Shown here: positions 2,412 through 25,950 of the stretch, in pieces | Layout of the letters: each line of letters opens with the position of its first letter | Numbering within the stretch: position 1 is the stretch's first letter | From: a virus | Lineage: Duplodnaviria > Heunggongvirae > Uroviricota > Caudoviricetes | Virus record (IMG/VR): IMGVR_UViG_2639762844_000002 | Span: 1 to 34,405 of that record | Length of the DNA stretch: 34,405 bases | Reading direction: 5' to 3' (one strand) | Translations under genes and position numbers: made by a program | Notes under the pieces: generated by a model | What the model was told of the DNA's origin: nothing | Databases searched by the model: none | The model's input: the letters and a program-made list of their open reading frames with translations, nothing else

Positions 2412-2582
2412 ATGAACGAGCCTCGTTGTATTGCTCAGTTACTGCGTAACGAAAGCCCCAGGGCGATTGACTTCACCATCACCCACGGGAAGGGACGCAA
2501 GGGAATCATTATCCGCACCAAAAAACAGAGTCCGTTAAAAAAGGCTCTGACCTTTCTGAAAAGCCGGAGGGTATGGAAATGA
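2412..2582 (+). CDS. Small early protein (P2 orf78-like)
   Basis: ATG at 2412 preceded by AGGAG; the track ORF opens at an in-frame GTG at 2388. Position matches P2 orf78. Confidence 0.55.
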   Translation: MNEPRCIAQLLRNESPRAIDFTITHGKGRKGIIIRTKKQSPLKKALTFLKSRRVWK

Positions 2583-3893: not shown

Positions 3894-4165
3894 GTATTCG
3901 TATTGAAATTGGCGAACGTTATGTCGTTACCAGTGACAGCTTTCAGTTTATTCTCCACGAGAAAAAGAGAGCGGAAAGCGGTAAAAACGCCGGTCAGGAA
4001 TGGCTGGCGGTGGTTGGTTATTACCCGAAATTAAGCCAGCTCGTTTCCGGCCTGATGCATCACGATATTCTGACCGGAAGCGCAAAGTCTTTTGCTGATT
4101 TAAACGCGCAGGTTGAGCAACTCAGCAAGCGTTGTTCAGAGGCTTTTGGCTCATATGGCCGTTAA
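3890..4165 (+). CDS. Hypothetical early protein (P2 orf83 position)
   Basis: 91 aa; start overlaps the upstream stop. Confidence 0.6.
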   Translation: MSIRIEIGERYVVTSDSFQFILHEKKRAESGKNAGQEWLAVVGYYPKLSQLVSGLMHHDILTGSAKSFADLNAQVEQLSKRCSEAFGSYGR

Positions 4166-6593: not shown

Positions 6594-8432
6594 ATGAGCG
6601 AGTTTGATGTTTTTTCTATTTCAGTTGATGATTTTAAAAAAAGTGAATACGCCAGTATATTATCATCGCCAAGAAGTTATTCTCATTTTGATATGGAGTC
6701 TTATTTTGTTCAGTTGTTGTCATCTTACAAGCTAAAAAACGATGTAAGTTCTTGGCGGCTTTGCTATTTATTACGTGCGTTGTTTAATTTTAAATTTTCT
6801 AGGTCTGGTGATATTATCGGTTTTGAGCCAAAAATCATTCTCTATCCTGAGAGGGGCTATAGGCCTTCAGATTATAAGGAGAGTTTTTCAACAATATTAA
6901 CTTGTATTAAAGAAAACTCCGATAATCCTTATATTATATCTAGGGTGTGTGATGTTTTATGGATAAATAACCGTAAGGATATAGACTCTGCCAATAAAGC
7001 AATAGAGTCATATTCTCTAATGGTTAATGATGCTTGCGATACTTTAATAGAAAAACAAGAGTCAGGTGATATCCATATTTTTGATGTTGTTGACTGCTTG
7101 GATAGAGGTATCGCAATATCGCGCATGCTTATTGGCAGGAAAAAACAACTACAAGGGGGGATAGTTGATTCGACATTAAGGTTATATCATGTATTAATAG
7201 ACTCTGGTATATTCACCGGTGTATTAAGAGTTTCTGAAATTCTTTATAAGAATAATTTATTGTGTCCCTTGCAATTGGCTGAGAATGCAGAAAAGATAGC
7301 TGATGAGCATTGTGGAGCGTCTTATTTTGATGCAGTGAAAAAATTGTTTTATTTTGCGTCTGAATTATATGTTAAAAACGATATGGAAGAGCAAGGAAGA
7401 CGGTGCAGAATTAAAGCGTCAGAAATAACATTGGCTCAATTTGAACAGTCTTCATCTTCAATATTGAAGGCTCATTGGTTAAGAGTTGCTCTTGGCGAAT
7501 TTAGAGCAATTGGTGGAATGAATGAAGAAATTAAAAAGATTAGAGAGGAATTGAATTCTATTCGAGATCAAATCAATGATGAAATGCACTTCTTTGCAAT
7601 ACCAATGGATCTTAGTGATGTTATCGCTCAGAAAGAGCATGTTTATAATCAATTGGATTTCTCAAGGGTAATTAAAACTTTAATTGCTAGATTTAAGATT
7701 GTAAGTGCCAGTGAAATTATGGAAAGAGCTCGTTCCGATGCTAAAAAACATTTTTTTCTTAATATGAGTGAAACGGTTGTTTATGATGATAGAGGGCGCG
7801 TTGTAGCAAGTCGTTCACCTTTGGATCCTGCGGGGGATATAAGTTTAAATGATGCTTGTGCAAATTATTTAAGAACTAGTAACATTGAGCATCAGGTCTA
7901 TGTTTGTGGTGAGTTTGAAGTCGTTAGGCAAAGTGTGTTGGCTAGGTATTCATTAAATGAAAATACATTTGACCCAATCTCACAACAAAGTGCATTTGTT
8001 CCACCTGGGTATGCAGAAATATTTTCTTTGGGGTTTTATAAGCTTTGGCAGGGAGATTATGTGTCTGCCTGTTATTTGTTATTGCCGCAATTGGAGAATT
8101 CAATTAGATGGATTTTAGAATTAAGAAGAAAAGAAACAACGAAAATAGATGTGTCGCTTTTTGAGGAGGCTACTAGCCTATCTCAAATGCTTGCAAATTA
8201 TAGGAGTGAAATGGAAGGTGTTTTTGATAGTGATCATGTATTGACTATGGATTTATTGTTCAATATGAAAGGTGGTGCTGCAATTAGACACACGATGGCT
8301 CATGGCAGGTATACTGTAAATCATTGTTATCAACCAACTTCAGTTTTTGCCTGTGTCTTTATCTTTTATTTAACTTGTTTGCCTTTATTTAGTGTATGGG
8401 AAGATAAAGTTGAACCTTATCTGGCTGATTAA
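6594..8432 (+). CDS. Cargo protein of unknown function (612 aa) at the tin/old hotspot; candidate anti-phage defence protein
   Basis: Long ORF in an AT-rich block between A and cos. RBS aggtgagg. No Walker A (GxxxxGK[ST]) motif, unlike P2 Old. C-terminal hydrophobic stretch SVFACVFIFYLTCLPLFSVW. An R-x4-H motif (AIRHTMAHG) sits near the C-terminus. Confidence 0.8.
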   Translation: MSEFDVFSISVDDFKKSEYASILSSPRSYSHFDMESYFVQLLSSYKLKNDVSSWRLCYLLRALFNFKFSRSGDIIGFEPKIILYPERGYRPSDYKESFSTILTCIKENSDNPYIISRVCDVLWINNRKDIDSANKAIESYSLMVNDACDTLIEKQESGDIHIFDVVDCLDRGIAISRMLIGRKKQLQGGIVDSTLRLYHVLIDSGIFTGVLRVSEILYKNNLLCPLQLAENAEKIADEHCGASYFDAVKKLFYFASELYVKNDMEEQGRRCRIKASEITLAQFEQSSSSILKAHWLRVALGEFRAIGGMNEEIKKIREELNSIRDQINDEMHFFAIPMDLSDVIAQKEHVYNQLDFSRVIKTLIARFKIVSASEIMERARSDAKKHFFLNMSETVVYDDRGRVVASRSPLDPAGDISLNDACANYLRTSNIEHQVYVCGEFEVVRQSVLARYSLNENTFDPISQQSAFVPPGYAEIFSLGFYKLWQGDYVSACYLLLPQLENSIRWILELRRKETTKIDVSLFEEATSLSQMLANYRSEMEGVFDSDHVLTMDLLFNMKGGAAIRHTMAHGRYTVNHCYQPTSVFACVFIFYLTCLPLFSVWEDKVEPYLAD

Positions 8433-18275: not shown

Positions 18276-18726
18276 GTTTAAGCGTTTTGAAGACCGGCTG
18301 ACCGGACTTATTGAATCGCTGTCACCGTCAGGGCGTCGGCGACTGGCGGTAGATATTGCGAAGAAACTGCGCCAGCGCCAGCAGCAGCGAATTAAATTAC
18401 AAAAAGCCCCGGATGGTACGCCGTATATACCGAGAAAAAACCAGCCAGTGCGAAATAAGAAAGGCCGGATAAAGCGGGAAATGTTTGCGAAATTACGCAC
18501 AAACCGATTTATGAAAGCAACAGGTAGCGAGAGTGCGGCTGTGGTGGAGTTTGCCAGCGGAGTACAACGAATTGCGAGAGTACATCAATTAGGGCTTAGG
18601 GATAAGCCGGGGCGTAATAGTGCTGTGGTGGAATATCCTGTTCGTGAGTTATTAGGTTTTGACAAGGAATCTATACAATTGATAGAAAAGGAGTTATTAG
18701 TGATTCTATCGAAAGATGTTATATGA
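18268..18726 (+). CDS. S: Tail completion protein S (3' end recoded AT-rich)
   Basis: 152 aa. The N-terminal two thirds are GC-typical; composition turns AT-rich from about 18590. Confidence 0.85.
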   Translation: MNEFKRFEDRLTGLIESLSPSGRRRLAVDIAKKLRQRQQQRIKLQKAPDGTPYIPRKNQPVRNKKGRIKREMFAKLRTNRFMKATGSESAAVVEFASGVQRIARVHQLGLRDKPGRNSAVVEYPVRELLGFDKESIQLIEKELLVILSKDVI

Positions 18727-19478
18727 GATGGGTGTTTGTGGATAAAAAATTTTCCATTTTGAGAAAAAGAGTAAAGCATTCTCAAAAGAAAGTTATGGAT
18801 TGTATTATTGCTGACCATAATGCTGATGTATGTGTGTTATGCGGGAGTTCTGACGATATTACTCGTGAGCACATTATTCCTCAGTGGGCCTTTGAGTCAA
18901 ATGCTGAAAAACTTTTAATTAATAAAAAGAATAATCAGTCAACTCATTACATCAAAGCCACTGTACCAGCATGCAGAGTGTGCAATTCTGATTTGCTGGG
19001 AGCGTTTGAGTATAACCTGAAGAAATTTCTTACGGAAAAGAGGGGCGATGAGTTAACAGATTATGAATATGATTGCATCATATGGTGGTTGCAATACATG
19101 GGCTTTAAGTTGCAATTAATGGATTTACGGACCCGCTTTCTCAGGTATAAAGGGGGGGATTATATCCCTTTCCTTGCAAACTTCCCGGTTGCAATGTTTT
19201 GGGGGAATGTCGATACGACACCGGAGGATGTCTTCAGGATTATAAGAAAATCGCGACGCAATCTGATGTCGAAATGGAAGGATAAAAAACATAATTCTTT
19301 GATGGTTTTTGAAACATCAAACAAGAGTTTTCATTTCTTTCATAAGGTTGATGAATTTATTTTTATTGAAATGCCTCAGGTTAAGAAGGCGTTTTTCTTC
19401 TTTTTTAATAAAGAATTTGACAGCCATGATTTAGCTCATGAGGAGTGTATGAAGATTATAGAGAAGTGCTACAACTAA
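18723..19478 (+). CDS. HNH-motif nuclease-domain protein (251 aa), cargo inserted between S and V
   Basis: CVLCGSSDDITREHIIPQW ... CRVCNSDL fits the HNH signature (CxxC-EHIxP-N-CxxCN). AT-rich. Start overlaps the S stop (ATGA). Confidence 0.8.
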   Translation: MRWVFVDKKFSILRKRVKHSQKKVMDCIIADHNADVCVLCGSSDDITREHIIPQWAFESNAEKLLINKKNNQSTHYIKATVPACRVCNSDLLGAFEYNLKKFLTEKRGDELTDYEYDCIIWWLQYMGFKLQLMDLRTRFLRYKGGDYIPFLANFPVAMFWGNVDTTPEDVFRIIRKSRRNLMSKWKDKKHNSLMVFETSNKSFHFFHKVDEFIFIEMPQVKKAFFFFFNKEFDSHDLAHEECMKIIEKCYN

Positions 19479-19555
19479 TATTTATTATGTTGTGTCACGG
19501 CTGACAGAGTCCTCCATGATTGCTGCTGGTATCGTCCGGCGGCATCCTTCCCGTC

Positions 19556-20191
19556 ATGAACACTCTCGCAAATATTCAGGAACTCGCGCGCGCACTGCGC
19601 AACATGATTCGTACCGGCCTTGTCGTCGAAACCGACCTTAACGCCGGTCGCTGCCGTGTGCAGACCGGCGGCATGTGCACCGACTGGCTTCAGTGGCTGA
19701 CCCATCGCGCCGGGCGTTCGCGCACATGGTGGGCACCTTCCGTGGGGGAACAGGTGCTGATTCTGGCCGTGGGCGGTGAACTCGACACTGCGTTCGTTCT
19801 GCCGGGGATTTATTCCGGCGATAACCCCGCGCCGTCGGTGTCGGCGGATGCCCTGCATATCCGTTTCCCTGACGGGGCGGTGATTGAGTATGAACCTGAA
19901 ACCAGTGCACTCACGGTAAGCGGAATTAAAACGGCCAGCGTGACGGCTTCTGATTCTGTTACTGCCACGGTGCCGGTGGTCATGGTGAAAGCATCAACCC
20001 GCGTCACCCTGGACACACCGGAGGTGGTCTGCACCAACAAGCTGATTACCGGCACGCTGGAAGTGCAGAAGGGCGGGACGATGCGCGGCAACATTGAACA
20101 CACCGGCGGTGAACTTTCATCAAACGGGAAGGTACTGCATACCCATAAACACCCCGGCGACAGCGGCGGCAAAACCGGGAGTCCTCTATGA
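19556..20191 (+). CDS. V: Baseplate spike protein
   Basis: 211 aa from the ATG at 19556; begins MNTLANIQELARALRNMIRTG. Confidence 0.9.
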   Translation: MNTLANIQELARALRNMIRTGLVVETDLNAGRCRVQTGGMCTDWLQWLTHRAGRSRTWWAPSVGEQVLILAVGGELDTAFVLPGIYSGDNPAPSVSADALHIRFPDGAVIEYEPETSALTVSGIKTASVTASDSVTATVPVVMVKASTRVTLDTPEVVCTNKLITGTLEVQKGGTMRGNIEHTGGELSSNGKVLHTHKHPGDSGGKTGSPL

Positions 20192-20535
20192 CAGCGCGTT
20201 ATCTAGGGATGAATCGCAGTGATGGCCTGACTGTCACTGACCTTGAGCATATCAGCCAGAGTATCGGCGATATCCTGCGCACACCGGTCGGCTCACGGGT
20301 GATGCGTCGTGATTACGGCTCGTTGCTGGCATCAATGATTGACCAGCCGCAGACCCCCGCGCTTGAGTTGCAGATTAAGGTCGCCTGTTACATGGCGGTG
20401 CTGAAATGGGAACCCCGCGTAACCCTGTCATCCGTCACCACGGCGCGCAGTTTTGACGGGCGAATGACGGTCACGTTAACCGGTCAGCACAACGACACCG
20501 GCCAGCCACTTTCGTTAACCATCCCTGTGAGTTGA
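20188..20535 (+). CDS. W: Baseplate protein W (gp25-like)
   Basis: 115 aa. Confidence 0.9.
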   Translation: MTARYLGMNRSDGLTVTDLEHISQSIGDILRTPVGSRVMRRDYGSLLASMIDQPQTPALELQIKVACYMAVLKWEPRVTLSSVTTARSFDGRMTVTLTGQHNDTGQPLSLTIPVS

Positions 20536-20539
20536 AACC

Positions 20540-21448
20540 ATGCCGATTATCGACCTGAACCAGCTACCCGCACCGGATGTGGTCGAGGAGCTGGACTTTG
20601 AAACCATTCTCGCTGAACGCAAGGCGACACTGATTTCCCTTTACCCGGAAGACCAGCAGGAGGCGGTCGCCCGTACCCTGACGCTGGAATCTGAGCCTCT
20701 CGTCAAACTGCTGGAGGAAAATGCTTATCGTGAGCTTATCTGGCGTCAGCGTGTGAATGAGGCCGCACGGGCGGTGATGCTGGCCTGTGCCGCCGGTAAT
20801 GACCTTGATGTGATTGGTGCCAATTACAACACCACGCGCCTGATTATCACCCCGGCAGATGATTCGACCATCCCGCCGACACCGGCAGTGATGGAATCTG
20901 ACACGGATTATCGTCTGCGTATTCAGCAGGCGTTTGAAGGTTTAAGCGTCGCCGGGTCGGTGGGTGCCTATCAGTATCATGGTCGCAGTGCTGACGGGCG
21001 TGTCGCGGATATCTCTGTCACCAGTCCGTCTCCGGCCTGCGTCACCATCTCTGTGCTGTCACGTGAGAATAACGGTGTCGCATCCGAAGACCTGCTGGCG
21101 GTGGTGCGTAACGCCCTGAATGGCGAGGACGTCAGGCCGGTGGCCGACCGCGTGACCGTGCAGTCTGCCGCCATCGTTGAATACCAGATAAACGCCACGC
21201 TTTACCTTTACCCTGGTCCCGAAAGCGAACCCATACGCGCTGCCGCCGTGAAAAAACTGGAAGCGTACATCACGGCACAGCACCGGCTGGGGCGCGACAT
21301 CCGTCTGTCTGCCATTTATGCCGCTTTGCATGTGGAAGGCGTGCAGCGTGTCGAACTGGCTGCACCACTGGCTGACATCGTGCTCAACAGTACGCAGGCG
21401 TCTTTCTGTACCGAATACCGCGTCGTGACCGGAGGCTCGGATGAGTGA
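20540..21448 (+). CDS. J: Baseplate assembly protein J
   Basis: 302 aa. Confidence 0.9.
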   Translation: MPIIDLNQLPAPDVVEELDFETILAERKATLISLYPEDQQEAVARTLTLESEPLVKLLEENAYRELIWRQRVNEAARAVMLACAAGNDLDVIGANYNTTRLIITPADDSTIPPTPAVMESDTDYRLRIQQAFEGLSVAGSVGAYQYHGRSADGRVADISVTSPSPACVTISVLSRENNGVASEDLLAVVRNALNGEDVRPVADRVTVQSAAIVEYQINATLYLYPGPESEPIRAAAVKKLEAYITAQHRLGRDIRLSAIYAALHVEGVQRVELAAPLADIVLNSTQASFCTEYRVVTGGSDE

Positions 21449-21971
21449 TTCGCGACTGCTGCCGACCGGCTCATCACCGCTTGAAGTCGCCGCCGCAAAA
21501 GCCTGTGCGGAAATTGAAAAAACGCCGGTCAGTATTCGTGAACTGTGGAACCCGGACACCTGCCCGGCAAATCTGCTGCCGTGGCTGGCGTGGGCGTTTT
21601 CGGTCGACAGATGGGATGAAAAGTGGCCGGAAGCGACCAAACGCGCCGTTATTCGCGATGCCTATTTCATCCACTGTCATAAAGGCACTATAGGTGCAAT
21701 CCGGCGTGTGGTGGAGCCGCTGGGCTATCTCATCAACGTGACGGAGTGGTGGGAAACCAGTGACCCGCCGGGCACCTTCCGGCTTGATATTGGTGTACTG
21801 GAAAGCGGCATCACAGAGGCAATGTATCAGGAAATGGAACGGCTGATTGCTGATGCCAAACCTGCAAGCCGCCACCTTATTGGCCTGAACATTACCCGGG
21901 ACATTCCCGGCTACCTGTTCGCCGGTAGTGTGGCTTATGACGGCGATGTAATTACGGTTTACCCCGGATAA
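21441..21971 (+). CDS. I: Baseplate / tail protein I
   Basis: 176 aa. Confidence 0.9.
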   Translation: MSDSRLLPTGSSPLEVAAAKACAEIEKTPVSIRELWNPDTCPANLLPWLAWAFSVDRWDEKWPEATKRAVIRDAYFIHCHKGTIGAIRRVVEPLGYLINVTEWWETSDPPGTFRLDIGVLESGITEAMYQEMERLIADAKPASRHLIGLNITRDIPGYLFAGSVAYDGDVITVYPG

Positions 21972-21981
21972 GTGAGGAATA

Positions 21982-24111
21982 ATGAGCACAAAATTCAGAA
22001 CCGTTATCACCACTGCCGGTGCAGCAAAGCTGGCAGCGGCAACCGCGCCGGGAGGGCGGAAGGTCAACATTACCACGATGGCCGTCGGGGATGGCGGTGG
22101 TAAATTGCCTGTCCCGGATGCCGGACAGACCGGGCTTATCCATGAAGTCTGGCGACATGCGCTGAACAAAATCAGCCAGGACAAACGAAACAGTAATTAT
22201 ATTATCGCAGAGCTGGTTATTCCGCCGGAGGTGGGCGGTTTCTGGATGCGGGAGCTTGGCCTGTACGATGATGCGGGAACGTTAATTGCCGTGGCGAACA
22301 TGGCCGAAAGCTATAAGCCAGCTCTTGCCGAAGGCTCAGGGCGTTCGCAGACCTGCCGCATGGTCATCATCGTCAGCAGTGTGGCCTCAGTGGAGCTGAC
22401 CATTGACACCACAACGGTGATGGCGACGCAGGATTACGTTGATGACAAAATTGCAGAGCATGAACAGTCACGACGTCACCCGGACGCCTCGCTGACCGCA
22501 AAAGGTTTTACTCAGTTAAGCAATGCGACCAACAGCACGTCTGAAACACTGGCCGCAACGCCAAAAGCAGTAAAGACCGCCTATGACCTGGCTAACGGGA
22601 AATATACTGCACAGGACGCCACCACCGCGCGAAAAGGCCTTGTTCAGCTCAGTAGTGCGACTAACAGCACGTCTGAAACGCTCGCCGCAACGCCAAAAGC
22701 AGTAAAGACCGCCTATGACCTTGCTAACGGGAAATACACTGCACAGGACGCCACCACAGCGCGAAAAGGGCTTGCTCAGCTCAGTAGCGCCACCAACAGC
22801 GATTCTGAAACGCTTGCGGCAACGCCAAAGGCGGTAAAGGCAGCATATGACCTCGCTAACGGGAAATATACCGCACAGGATGCCACCACTGCGCGAAAAG
22901 GTCTTGTCCAGCTCAGTAGCGCCACAAACAGCGATTCTGAAACGCTTGCGGCAACGCCAAAGGCGGTAAAGGTCGCGTATGACCTTGCTAACGGGAAATA
23001 CACTGCACAGGATGCCACCACAGCGCGAAAAGGGCTTGTTCAGCTCAGTAGCGCCACCAACAGTGATTCGGAAACGCTGGCCGCAACACCAAAAGCGGTG
23101 AAGTCTGCCTATGACAATGCTGAAAAACGTCTTCAGAAAGATCAAAATGGCGCGGATATTCCTGATAAAAGATTATTCCTGCGCAATATTGGAGCAACAA
23201 ATTCAACAACCATGTCTTTTAGTGGTGGTACAGGATGGTTCAGGCTGGCAACTGTAACCATGCCACAGGCCAGTTCCGTGGTTTACATAAGTCTGATTGG
23301 TGGTGCTGGATATAATGTTAACTCCCCTATGCAGGCTGGTATATCTGAACTTGTTCTTCGTGCGGGAAATGGAAATCCAAAAGGTCTTACTGGTGCGTTA
23401 TGGCGACGGACATCGGTTGGATTTACTAATTTTGCATGGGTGAATACATCCGGTGATACCTATGATGTTTATGTTGAAATAGGTAATTACGCCACAGGTG
23501 TTAATATTCAGTGGGATTATACCAGTAACGCCAGCGTAACGATTCATACATCACCATCTTATACAGCGAATAAACCAACAGGCCTGACAGATGGAACTGT
23601 ATATGTAATTTACAGTTCGCACATTAAACCGACTGCTGCTGATGTTGGGGCGTTGTCATTATCTGGAGGTCAATTGAATGGTGCACTGGGCATCGGAACA
23701 TCCAGTGCTCTTGGCGGTAACTCGATTGTTTTGGGTGATAATGACACGGGCTTTAAACAAAATGGCGACGGTAATCTGGATGTTTATGCTAATAACGTCC
23801 ATGTTATGCGCTTTGTCTCCGGTAGCATTCAAAGTAATAAAACCATAAATATTACGGGGCGTGTTAATCCCACAGATTACGGTAACTTTGATTCCCGCTA
23901 TGTCCGGGATATCCGGCTTGGTGGTGCTGCCACATACAAACCTGCGAACAATGGCATGACATGGACACATCAGGCACCGTCCGGGTGTATATATTCCGGC
24001 ATTATTGTTCAGGATACCGGCTCAAACTCTGCCGATAACATTGGTGGCGTATATTACAGACCGGTTCAGAAATACATTAACGGGACATGGTATAACGTGG
24101 CACAGGTATAA
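21982..24111 (+). CDS. H: Tail fibre protein H (mosaic, with internal tandem repeats)
   Basis: 709 aa. Conserved N-terminus, a central repeat array, and an AT-richer Gly/Tyr/Thr-rich C-terminal domain. Confidence 0.9.
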   Translation: MSTKFRTVITTAGAAKLAAATAPGGRKVNITTMAVGDGGGKLPVPDAGQTGLIHEVWRHALNKISQDKRNSNYIIAELVIPPEVGGFWMRELGLYDDAGTLIAVANMAESYKPALAEGSGRSQTCRMVIIVSSVASVELTIDTTTVMATQDYVDDKIAEHEQSRRHPDASLTAKGFTQLSNATNSTSETLAATPKAVKTAYDLANGKYTAQDATTARKGLVQLSSATNSTSETLAATPKAVKTAYDLANGKYTAQDATTARKGLAQLSSATNSDSETLAATPKAVKAAYDLANGKYTAQDATTARKGLVQLSSATNSDSETLAATPKAVKVAYDLANGKYTAQDATTARKGLVQLSSATNSDSETLAATPKAVKSAYDNAEKRLQKDQNGADIPDKRLFLRNIGATNSTTMSFSGGTGWFRLATVTMPQASSVVYISLIGGAGYNVNSPMQAGISELVLRAGNGNPKGLTGALWRRTSVGFTNFAWVNTSGDTYDVYVEIGNYATGVNIQWDYTSNASVTIHTSPSYTANKPTGLTDGTVYVIYSSHIKPTAADVGALSLSGGQLNGALGIGTSSALGGNSIVLGDNDTGFKQNGDGNLDVYANNVHVMRFVSGSIQSNKTINITGRVNPTDYGNFDSRYVRDIRLGGAATYKPANNGMTWTHQAPSGCIYSGIIVQDTGSNSADNIGGVYYRPVQKYINGTWYNVAQV
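22501..23110 (+). repeat. About 4.6 tandem copies of a 132-bp (44-aa) in-frame repeat within H
   Basis: Copies begin at 22501, 22633, 22765, 22897 and 23029. Each encodes KGLVQLSSATNSxSETLAATPKAVKxAYDLANGKYTAQDATTAR. Confidence 0.9.
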
Positions 24112-24114
24112 TTT

Positions 24115-24642
24115 ATGCAGCATTTGATAAATATAACAGCGGGGAATCCAAAAACGGTTGAACAATATCAATTGACAAAGGGTTTTGATGTTGTCTGGTT
24201 TTTTTCAGAAGATGGTAAGAACTGGTACGAAGAACAAAAGTATTTTGCTGATGACACGATAAAAATAGCGTACGACAAAGATAATATTATCCGCTATGTG
24301 GAAAAGGATGTGACAGCTATCAGACCAGATGGATTAAGTGTTGTTGAAGTGCCAGATATTACTGCTAACCGACGGGCGGACATTTCAGGGAACTGGATGT
24401 TTAAGGACGGCACAGTGATTAAACGAATTTATACGGCGGAGGAATTGCAGCAGCAGGCAGAAAATCGGAAAGCCAGACTTCTAGCAGATGCTGAATCCGT
24501 GATTTTGCCGCTGGAGCGCTCTGTCAGGCTGAACATGGCAACAGAGGAGGAGCGCACACGGCTGGAGGCTTGGGAACGCTATAGCGTTCTGGTCAGTCGT
24601 GTGGATCCTGCAAATCCTGAATGGCCGGAAATGCCGCAATAA
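24115..24642 (+). CDS. G: Tail fibre assembly chaperone
   Basis: 175 aa, immediately downstream of H. Confidence 0.88.
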
Positions 24643-24694
24643 GTTGTATGAGCTCTGGTGGGAGCCTACATATCTATGGCACAGAGTAAAGCCT

Positions 24695-24730
24695 AATCTG
24701 ACAGTCCGCTCTGTGCCAAAAGCGGACGTT
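24695..24730. repeat. Left copy of a 36-nt imperfect inverted repeat flanking the Z/fun-locus cargo gene
   Basis: aatctgacagtccgctctgtgccaaaagcggacgtt; its reverse complement matches 25951..25986 at 32 of 36 positions. Overlapping hairpins ggcacagag/ctctgtgcc and gtccgct/agcggac are present. Confidence 0.6.
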
Positions 24731-24805
24731 ATAAATTTCTTTTAGGGCAACCGAAAAAAGAGGGGTACGACCTATACTTGATTTGTATTTTAGATCACGC
24801 TTGCA

Positions 24806-25846
24806 TCAGTATAAATTTAACCCAAGCTTACTAATTTCTTTTCTACGCATTCCAAAAATAACATCACCACTTCTAGAAATGAATGAAGCAATGCGTCGGT
24901 CATTGTCATCTACACCTTCCCAGAAGAAAGGGACATTATTGTTCATCAGACTTTCTGCAAAGGTTAAATGTGTTAACGCCAAGAAAATTCTAACAAAATT
25001 AGATGGCTCATTGAAATCCTGATTCAGCAAATGTAGTGTCAAATGTCTATTGAAGCTACCTTCATTAACACCTCCAGTTGGTTTATATATGACATTTTTA
25101 AAAAAAGATCTGGTTGAATTCATCACATCACACTGGGGGTTTAAATGTGTGAAAAAATCCACCTCAGTTTCAATGTCATAACCTTTGCCGGGATGCCAGT
25201 CAAAATTTGGGAGCTGCCGTCTTCCCCATGTAATAATGAGTTTTCTAATTTCCTTTTCAAATCTGTCTGCACTTGTATTTGTGTTGTCACCATCACAAAA
25301 TTTTACAAGTAAGTTCCTCAATCCACCTTCAAAGACAGGGAAGAGCGACATTATAGATATATGATCATACCCCAAATAAAAAGCTTCTATAGCTTCAAAA
25401 ATAATTGTCTTGTAGTTTTTTAGTGATTCGCTCTTTATAAAGTATTTGTTGAAGTAAGCAATTGCAATTTCTAATGAGAAATTTTCGAATAACCATTTAT
25501 TTGAATTATTAAGCGGATTTTCACTTCTTTTAATTTCATGGATTGCAGAAGAAAGAGTGCCTTCTCCAATATATAGGGGTAATGCTATACCAAGTGAATT
25601 TGCATGCGACTGAATATTCGAACATCGTCCCCAATGTCTATTTAAGTACGATATTGGCCTTTCGGTAAGCAAGAAGTTTAAATCATCAATTTTAACTGTG
25701 AAAGAAGCATAACAAAGTTCACTTTTTGAGATTACTGGTTCTACGCTATGATTTCTCCTGAATTGATTTAGAATTTCATTCTCAGAGAGTTTGTCTAATT
25801 TTGATAAGCGTTTCAAAGTTGGCAGGAATTTTTCTAAATCTGACAT
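24806..25846 (-). CDS. Cargo protein of unknown function (346 aa) at the Z/fun locus; candidate anti-phage or exclusion protein
   Basis: AT-rich ORF on the strand opposite the late genes, between G and FI where P2 carries Z/fun. Own AT-rich upstream region. No recognisable motif. Confidence 0.8.
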   Translation of the reverse strand: MSDLEKFLPTLKRLSKLDKLSENEILNQFRRNHSVEPVISKSELCYASFTVKIDDLNFLLTERPISYLNRHWGRCSNIQSHANSLGIALPLYIGEGTLSSAIHEIKRSENPLNNSNKWLFENFSLEIAIAYFNKYFIKSESLKNYKTIIFEAIEAFYLGYDHISIMSLFPVFEGGLRNLLVKFCDGDNTNTSADRFEKEIRKLIITWGRRQLPNFDWHPGKGYDIETEVDFFTHLNPQCDVMNSTRSFFKNVIYKPTGGVNEGSFNRHLTLHLLNQDFNEPSNFVRIFLALTHLTFAESLMNNNVPFFWEGVDDNDRRIASFISRSGDVIFGMRRKEISKLGLNLY

Positions 25847-25950
25847 AATAATCCTAAAAGTTAAGAATTAATCTTTACGAAAGATATCATATGATACTTT
25901 GATTAATTATACTATTTAATGGTGTTTTTATCAGCACAGAACTAAGCGTA

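Follow-up and report, generated by a model that had tools for sequence, protein, structure and literature searches.

A mosaic tail fibre gene with five PF03406 units in a P2-like Escherichia coli prophage

Gene H and its closest described relatives

That P2, Mu, P1, lambda and the T-even phages exchange tail fibre modules has been a textbook fact since the early 1990s. The fibres of P2 bind LPS and require gpG for their assembly, and gpH tolerates replacement of its C terminus, which retargets the phage and has been put to use on P2 particles (PMC9594776). Mu fibres also bind LPS, and their N terminus anchors them to the baseplate (PMC11915804). According to PMC3368898, the repeat family PF03406 (Phage_fiber_2) was first recognised in Stf, the side tail fibre of lambda; little was known of the fold and role of its unit in 2012, and the methods used to model it in 2021 disagreed (PMC3368898, PMC8078820). 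The number of PF03406 units per fibre is one in Mu, two in P2, three in fiAA91-ss, four in vB_EcoM-12474III, five in the protein described here and six in relatives of it. StfR of E. coli K-12, considered as another fibre that might be rich in PF03406 units, turned out to carry PF03335 and has no PF03406 match.

The protein described here, H, is encoded in a window of 34,405 nucleotides, the whole stretch of phage DNA that we analysed. According to the ORF list, gene H (21982..24111, plus strand) encodes 709 amino acids, and its product is identical to RefSeq WP_041520905.1, annotated as "tail fiber protein". Its best PHROGs match is a tail fibre family (E = 4.8e-278), and a search of NCBIfam with the H fibre returned no matching model. 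The gene order V-W-J-I-H-G is that of the P2 map, both by the order of the ORFs and by the RefSeq annotation of an identical locus. H thus follows the baseplate genes V, W, J and I, the last of which is a PF09684 member by Pfam, and precedes a Tfa-family assembly gene and the sheath gene. The prophage extends from an integrase gene (583-1596) to gene D, which adjoins a host peptidase U32 gene. The 2,130-nt gene is present at full length and 100% identity in four complete E. coli genomes, about 60 further complete genomes carry it at equal length with 95 to 99% identity, and the exact 709-aa protein is found on 177 contigs. We consider it very likely that H is a real tail fibre gene of a complete, intact P2-like (Peduovirus-type) E. 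coli prophage, that it encodes a three-part fibre, and that gene G next to it encodes the assembly chaperone. No result speaks against this identification.

The N-terminal baseplate-anchor domain, aa 1-151 (21982..22434, plus strand), matches PF12571 (Phage_tail_fib; E = 1.1e-58). By blastp, aa 1-251 of H are 95.6% identical to P2 gpH, and by blastn, positions 19555-22709 are 97% identical to P2 DNA, which bears out an earlier description of a P2-like anchor. H and G share with P2 gpH and gpG their position in V-W-J-I-H-G, the PF12571 domain and the first two PF03406 units. Judged from the sequence, both the PF12571 anchor and the gene position make H a member of the P2-type (Peduovirus) gpH proteins, and by homology it would act as a trimeric virion fibre that mediates adsorption. 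P2 H differs in having two repeat units versus five, and in a mostly unrelated C-terminal module that has its junction within unit 2 ("KAVKTVMDETNKK"). H is a mosaic tail fibre of an already known and annotated kind. Its discovery value is small, since the protein is in RefSeq, the repeat is a Pfam family and module exchange is textbook.

The repeat array and its copy number

Five in-frame units of 132 bp, or 44 aa, occupy 22483..23142 on the plus strand (22483-22614, 22615-22746, 22747-22878, 22879-23010 and 23011-23142), as defined by TRF, Pfam and a unit HMM. They were found as PF03406 "phage tail fibre repeat" in five stretches with E = 6.6e-99 and 323.7 bits against a gathering score of 22. 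All five span the 42-position model end to end and are members of the family without distinction. Unit 5 diverges in its final 9 residues. TRF itself reports an array at 22528..23115 with a period of 132, 4.5 copies, 88% matches and a score of 861. The preliminary description, made from the sequence alone, had noted about 4.6 in-frame tandem repeats of 132 bp, and this agrees with the TRF count and with five units in codon register. Its further statement that the copies are nearly identical in DNA, implying recent expansion, did not hold. Identity between units ranges from 61 to 91%, the best pair (units 3 and 4, 90.9%) still differs at 12 of 132 nt, and identical runs in register between two units reach 46 nt at most. 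Among units 2-4, the plus frame has 33 synonymous versus 7 non-synonymous codon differences. Because identity is 61-91% and the differences are mostly synonymous, the units appear from their sequences to be old duplicates under purifying selection, with no recent expansion.

The units are of two types. Units 1-2 are P2-type ("NSTSETL") and units 3-5 are of a second type ("NSDSETL"), with unit 5 terminating in the Mu-Sc-like "AYDNAEKRLQKD". By blastn, collinear identity to P2 stops at 22709, within unit 2, and 22710-23133 gives paralogous matches only. Two unit types and P2 identity that ends in unit 2 point to recombination between two different H genes and not to local duplication. Phages fiAA91-ss and vB_EcoM-12474III resemble H in the anchor, in the two unit types and their order, and in the terminal unit "SAYDNAEKRLQKD" followed by the "QNGADIP" joint. 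They differ in having fewer units, three and four, and a Mu S'-like C-terminal module ("GKDTFTKNIGACRAYS...").

We determined PF03406 copy numbers in six isolated phages and in the 120 closest proteins listed. Close alleles of H carry 4, 5 or 6 units, giving proteins of 665, 709 or 753 aa, and they differ by whole units even where the flanks are identical: proteins sharing the same 489-aa flanks have 4 or 6. The 4-copy allele lacks exactly unit 2, and the 6-copy allele contains one unit more, which is 97% identical to unit 3; the flanks of both are 98-99% identical. The length variation of the fibre that had been anticipated, with a comparison of copy number among relatives as the check, is borne out by these whole-unit differences. 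No part of the protein varies more than the array, which takes 58 distinct forms among the best 120 near-identical proteins. A UPGMA tree of the flanks implies at least about 19 copy-number changes among the best 120 proteins listed, a rough count, since the flanks differ at a median of only 6 residues, which leaves the tree poorly resolved, and some short-read contigs may be mis-assembled. All 83 of the sampled 709-aa proteins, which are 98-100% identical, retain five units. Between alleles, units that correspond to each other are 94-100% identical, and the duplications are therefore older than the divergence of the alleles. One could imagine that the unit count gives the fibre an adaptive "length dial", which would change recurrently to suit how thick the host O-antigen or capsule layer is, with synonymous divergence kept as a brake on runaway recombination. 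We regard this as unlikely. Fibres of this kind do provide a natural series for probing the role of the repeat: 4, 5 or 6 units occur with one receptor-binding module, 3 or 4 with another.

A recent in situ expansion of one unit, at a fast-changing, contingency-like locus, would explain why alleles with identical flanks differ in copy number and why, in the 6-copy allele, the additional unit so closely resembles its neighbour. It would not account for the 12 differences between even the closest units of H and their largely synonymous character, for corresponding units that predate the alleles, for two unit types with P2 identity stopping inside the second unit, or for the constancy of five units in the 709-aa proteins. 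We therefore think expansion of this kind improbable, and favour old units reassorted by recombination between different H genes.

We also checked whether the five-copy array could be an assembly artefact, by collapse or expansion of the repeat. Assembly from short reads can go wrong at 132-bp tandem repeats, and some of the 4- or 6-copy relatives sit on short contigs. Nevertheless, the four complete genomes with the identical gene are independent, the other complete genomes and the 177 contigs agree with them, and ordinary reads can place the units because these differ by 9-39% with identical runs of at most 46 nt. An artefact, which would have refuted the preliminary description, is extremely improbable.

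Two open frames run antisense to the array, one of 209 aa (22516..23145, minus strand) and one of 81 aa (22776..23021, minus strand). That either is protein-coding is hardly credible: the longer one, kept open by the repeat, has 0 synonymous versus 40 non-synonymous codon differences among units 2-4; the apparent conservation of the shorter one (28 synonymous and 17 non-synonymous differences) arises because it shares its wobble positions with the plus frame, where the counts are 33 and 7, and its frame meets 8 stops across the array; RefSeq annotates neither of them; and both lie wholly within gene H, which is itself overwhelmingly supported by homology. They are by-products of the repeat, as had been suspected.

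The C-terminal module, its joint and gene G

The module joint is a conserved linker, "QKDQNGADIP" (23134..23163, plus strand), where a blastn boundary falls at 23134. The AT-rich C-terminal receptor-binding module has 322 aa (aa 388-709; 23143..24111, plus strand) and was delimited by composition, blastn and blastp. The GC content is 0.561 in the N-terminal part (GC3 0.617), 0.539 in the array and 0.442 in the module (GC3 0.356). The closest DNA relative of the module is the Sv segment of the Muvirus vB_YpM_5, a Yersinia phage, which is 93% identical in DNA over 23134-23921 (blastn) and 82% identical in protein over aa 411-709 (blastp). To P2 H, in contrast, identity is only 36% over aa 537-709. 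An early reading of the C-terminal 320 aa or so as compositionally distinct and swapped is thus well supported, and the domain is clearly not identical to that of P2 H, the outcome that would have refuted it. The swap may reasonably be taken to have altered host range.

Phage Mu supplies further homology. Residues 111-171 of Mu S are 69% identical to the last unit and linker of H (aa 344-404), and the crystallised tip of Mu S is 48% identical to aa 627-707. The homologous tip of H spans aa 624-708 (23851-24105), and the match to PDB 5yvq (Mu S; E = 3.4e-31) consists of two stretches, aa 338-408 and 624-708. Mu-type S/S' proteins differ from H in their N-terminal anchor, and Mu S has a single repeat unit. 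We looked at the spread of the module in phages by tblastn. At the same "QNGADIP" joint, fiAA91-ss and vB_EcoM-12474III carry the Mu S'-type module instead, and fibre engineering could use this motif as a natural place for in-frame fusion. A monomer model of aa 344-709 was predicted with AF2 from a shallow alignment of 14 sequences (97-99% identical); its mean pLDDT of 39.5 and pTM of 0.42 are too low for it to be of use. In this low-confidence model, residues of about 403-533 alone are moderately confident and form a run of beta strands.

In a Mu-like phage, the DNA most similar to the module is part of a hin-flanked invertible segment and comes with a gix-like site (TTATCTAAAACCTCGGTTTGCAGGAA). 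The module might therefore be a programmed switch, either an invertible segment of the Mu G or P1 C type or the product of a diversity-generating retroelement. H does share two traits of the invertible segments (Mu G / P1 C / Din), namely an S/S'-homologous C terminus and a U-type chaperone. However, a pair of gix/cix/hix sites, an adjacent serine invertase (Gin/Hin/Cin/Pin) and an opposite S'/U' pair, present in such systems, are absent from the window. A search for TTNNNNNAAACCNNGGTTTNNNNNAA across the whole window, allowing up to 2 mismatches, gave 0 matches and none at the joint; no inverted repeats were found in 21900-24700; and no invertase is annotated in the prophage, including in RefSeq for strain Ec40743, whose H locus is 100% identical. 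Next after gene G come an unrelated ORF on the minus strand and the sheath gene, in that order, and there is no second, inverted fibre/Tfa pair downstream. Mu and vB_YpM_5 have the gix site, which in Mu-like phages is flanked by two "NGADIP" motifs. At the H joint these two motifs are fused, and the gix site has therefore been removed, the stretch that bears it being deleted. Judged by these searches for crossover sites, inverted repeats and invertase genes, a programmed switch is almost certainly not the explanation, and we favour a module acquired by recombination.

Gene G (24115..24642, plus strand) begins 4 nt past the H stop codon and encodes a tail fibre assembly protein of 175 aa with matches to PF02413 (E = 1.1e-33) and phrog_136 (E = 4.5e-79). 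The PF02413 match and the placement directly after the fibre gene identify it as a Caudovirales tail fibre assembly protein (Tfa). The protein is 72-75% identical to P2 G, Mu U and vB_YpM_5 U; P2 G is equal in length and 74% identical, and Mu U is 72% identical. By blastn, positions 24052-24735 have 74-77% DNA identity to P2 G and Mu U. Like the fibre tip, the gene is AT-rich in its first half, with a GC content of 0.383 there versus 0.519 in the second half.

These homologies suggest how the fibre might work and evolve. The P2-type N-terminal domain would anchor a trimeric fibre to the baseplate, with the five 44-residue PF03406 units forming a segment of the shaft. A receptor-binding module from another lineage, common to the invertible S segment of Mu-like phages, is joined at the conserved "QNGADIP" linker and would fold with assistance from the Tfa protein encoded downstream. 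Both the units and the linker probably act as in-frame patches of homology. Equal or unequal homologous recombination in these patches would alter how many units there are, and with that presumably the shaft length, and could swap C-terminal modules between unrelated phages and so shift host range. What is known of P2 gpH/gpG and Mu S/U suggests that the fibre forms a trimer, that LPS is its likely receptor, that it depends on the chaperone, and that copy number may affect fibre length and host range.

Just downstream, at 24806..25846, lies a cargo ORF of 346 aa, which we judged more intriguing than H.

Tail fibre gene H and its prophage

The window carries a complete P2-like prophage, which begins with an integrase gene (583-1596) and runs through replication gene A, portal, terminase, capsid, lysis, baseplate, sheath, tube and tape measure genes to gene D; a host peptidase U32 gene comes next. 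The tail-fibre gene H is placed as in P2, in the order V-W-J-I-H-G, and the PF02413 tail fibre assembly gene G (24115..24642, + strand, 175 aa) begins four bases past its stop codon. H is an open reading frame of 709 aa (21982..24111, + strand), as the preliminary description had it. Pfam recognizes an N-terminal tail-collar fibre domain at aa 1-151 (PF12571, + strand) and five stretches of the PF03406 "Phage tail fibre repeat" (E 6.6e-99), one for each 44-residue repeat unit. H belongs to the P2 gpH family and has a receptor-binding module of the Mu Sv type, Sv being the variable segment of fibre gene S. RefSeq already lists the exact protein as a tail fibre protein.

A foreign C-terminal module

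The composition break previously noticed in H is real and sharp. GC content is 0.561 in the anchor (21982-22482; GC3 0.617) versus 0.442 in the C-terminal part (23143-24111; GC3 0.356), with the repeat array (22483-23142) at 0.539 (GC3 0.518). In the first half of G (24115-24378) GC is 0.383 and GC3 0.341; in the second half (24379-24642) they are 0.519 and 0.534. We mapped the mosaic by blastn against P2, the P2-like phage P2_AC1 and the Mu-like phage vB_YpM_5. Positions 19555-22709 are 97% identical to P2, 22710-23133 gave paralogous (repeat-to-repeat) matches only, and 23134-23921 is 93% identical to the Yersinia Muvirus vB_YpM_5. After a stretch with no DNA match in these three phages (23922-24051), 24052-24735 is 74-77% identical to P2 G and Mu-type U, 24736-25949 is unrelated cargo, and from 25950 onward the DNA is 96.6% identical to the P2_AC1 sheath gene.

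In vB_YpM_5 this DNA corresponds to the fibre gene's variable part, within an invertible segment adjoining a hin invertase. At the protein level, aa 411-709 of H share 82% identity with the vB_YpM_5 Sv product, versus just 36% with P2 gpH over aa 537-709; the C-terminal domain, suspected earlier to be swapped, is therefore not that of P2. In a search of solved structures, Mu fibre protein S (5yvq) matched H twice, at aa 338-408 (last unit and linker) and aa 624-708 (tip). Sub-modules of the C-terminal part are common to other phages: Peduovirus P24E6b shares the final ~167 aa at 93% identity, T-even gp37 distal subunits match the middle at 40-48%, and a 434-nt piece recurs with 96.8% identity on an E. 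coli plasmid of 90.9 kb, where the feature is annotated "tail fiber protein". There is also a 24-nt direct repeat of 75% identity, 23143..23166 (CAAAATGGCGCGGATATTCCTGAT) and 23758..23781 (CAAAATGGCGACGGTAATCTGGAT), whose copies encode QNGADIPD and QNGDGNLD; the linker motif may recur here in degenerate form within the module, or the similarity may be chance.

Gene S of Mu and vB_YpM_5 has a constant part closing with "…KDRNGADIPNKPLFIQNLGLQE", the gix crossover site in the IQNLGLQE codons, and a variable part opening with a second "…QKNQNGADIPDKKLFLRNIG". The gix-type site, at 3950..3975 of the vB_YpM_5 locus and around 2450..2475 of the Mu locus, lies between two "NGADIP…N(I/L)G" copies. In the window, the last unit continues directly into "QKDQNGADIPDKRLFLRNIGATNSTT", and DNA identity to vB_YpM_5 begins at 23134. 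In H the two NGADIP motifs are thus fused and the gix-bearing stretch is missing, which gives a tidy picture of an invertible-segment module turning into a fixed one. Across the whole window, no gix/hix-like site was found. We rejected H as an invertible-segment system, since crossover sites, invertase and alternative gene pair are all absent. P2-type fibres with Mu-type modules have the two NGADIP motifs fused and the gix site lost.

The isolated Peduoviruses fiAA91-ss and vB_EcoM-12474III (12474III) share the joint with H but carry a different, Mu S′-like module. P2, unlike H, has its own module attached inside unit 2, at "KAVKTVMDETNKK". Different modules are joined at these short conserved stretches, which therefore act as points of in-frame exchange. 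Haggård-Ljungquist et al. (1992) reportedly described, with the first sequencing of P2 H and G, that fibre modules pass horizontally between P2, Mu, P1, lambda and T-even phages.

By analogy with the fibres of P2 and Mu (PMC9594776, PMC11915804), the N terminus of H would anchor a trimeric fibre at the baseplate, and the C-terminal module would recognize a receptor that, as in those phages, is most likely the LPS core. The downstream Tfa protein would be required for folding of the tip, and swapping the C-terminal part would be expected to retarget the phage.

The repeat array and fibre length

The one strong array that Tandem Repeats Finder reported for the window spans 22528..23115 and has a period of 132, with 4.5 copies, 88% matches and no indels (score 861). 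In the codon register of H (+ strand), this resolves into five 44-residue units, at 22483-22614, 22615-22746, 22747-22878, 22879-23010 and 23011-23142; unit 5 differs over its final nine residues, with …AYDNAEKRLQKD in place of …AYDLANGKYTAQ. The copies had been described as nearly identical in DNA and recently expanded. Pairwise identity is in fact 61-91%; the closest pair, units 3 and 4, agrees at 120/132 nt, and the longest in-register identical run between units is 46 nt. Units 1-2 ("NSTSETL") belong to the P2 type and units 3-5 ("NSDSETL") to a second one, and collinear identity to P2 stops inside unit 2. This suggests that the array arose when two different H genes recombined within their repeats, rather than when a single unit was duplicated locally. 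Codon differences among units 2-4 are mostly synonymous (33, versus 7 non-synonymous), and matching units across other alleles are 94-100% identical. The units therefore predate the alleles, with purifying selection on the protein maintaining them; for this allele, a recent expansion is unsupported.

It had also been considered that the array might be an assembly artefact, collapsing to one copy on re-sequencing. Public data speak against this: four complete E. coli chromosomes (Ec40743, EH41, EH53 and PM22) carry the 2130-nt gene with 100% identity, ~60 further complete E. coli genomes have H of the same length at 95-99% identity, and the exact protein occurs on 177 contigs. Units this diverged can be placed by ordinary reads.

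Variation in fibre length, proposed from the repeats, proved real. Among the 120 closest proteins listed, lengths are 709 aa (83), 665 aa (33) and 753 aa (4), that is 5, 4 and 6 units. Whole units are gained or lost between close alleles: in a 4-unit allele taken from a complete genome, exactly unit 2 is missing, and a 6-unit allele has one additional unit, 97% identical to unit 3, with flanks 98-99% identical in DNA in both cases. Identical 489-aa flanks were found with either 4 or 6 units. These best 120 proteins hold 58 distinct arrays. By rough parsimony on a flank tree they need ~19 unit-number changes, an approximate count because the flanks differ little and some of the contigs were assembled from short reads. 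Isolated phages carry one unit (Mu), two (P2, P2_AC1, pro147), three (fiAA91-ss) or four (12474III). Unit number may plausibly set shaft length. The literature gives the fold of the PF03406 unit as little known or as modelled by methods that disagree (PMC3368898, PMC8078820), and our AF2 monomer model of aa 344-709, from a shallow alignment, was unusable (mean pLDDT 39.5).

Two antisense ORFs, 22516..23145 and 22776..23021 (both - strand), are present and, as first thought, are by-products of the repeats; RefSeq annotates neither. In the frame of the former, 40/40 codon differences among units 2-4 are non-synonymous. The latter frame has 28 synonymous and 17 non-synonymous differences, a pattern owed to wobble positions shared with the sense frame, and 8 stops across the array.

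Cargo loci and other ORFs

Between G and the sheath gene FI, where P2 has fun(Z), the window carries a 346-aa ORF (24806..25846, - strand, GC 0.34) with a promoter-like site upstream. It has no match in Pfam, PADLOC, PHROGs or NCBIfam. Its family of 54 proteins, "hypothetical" wherever the source names them, spans several gammaproteobacterial orders; named sources are Enterobacterales, Aeromonas, Vibrio, Photobacterium, Pseudomonas, Halomonas and Allopusillimonas. The predicted fold is confident (pLDDT 86.4) and mostly helical, and fold comparison gave no convincing structural relative. Distant homologues occupy variable regions: in Vibrio they neighbour TIR and kinase genes, and in Aeromonas they come after recD. 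The ORF may be anti-phage or abortive-infection cargo consisting of a single gene. The cargo in this slot differs in each of the P2-like relatives compared: P2 has fun(Z), P2_AC1 a 181-aa hypothetical protein, LR882050 a 720-aa AAA ATPase, SSJR01000019 a 484-aa ORF lacking a Pfam match, 12474III a SMEK-domain protein and pro147 a metal-binding-domain protein.

A 251-aa ORF (18723..19478, + strand), between the tail-completion genes and baseplate gene V, matches phrog_10503 and nothing in Pfam, PADLOC or NCBIfam; P2 orf30 has the same position, but the window ORF is instead on the + strand. Where P2 has its old/tin cargo, with the replication gene A region on one side and the portal gene on the other, a 612-aa ORF (6594..8432, + strand) matches the candidate defence family PDC-S39 (PADLOC, E 2e-68), Pfam DUF7380 and phrog_5183 (unknown function). 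In the prophage of E. coli Ec40743, whose H is identical, this position holds other cargo, a cytosine methyltransferase and an ATP-binding protein.
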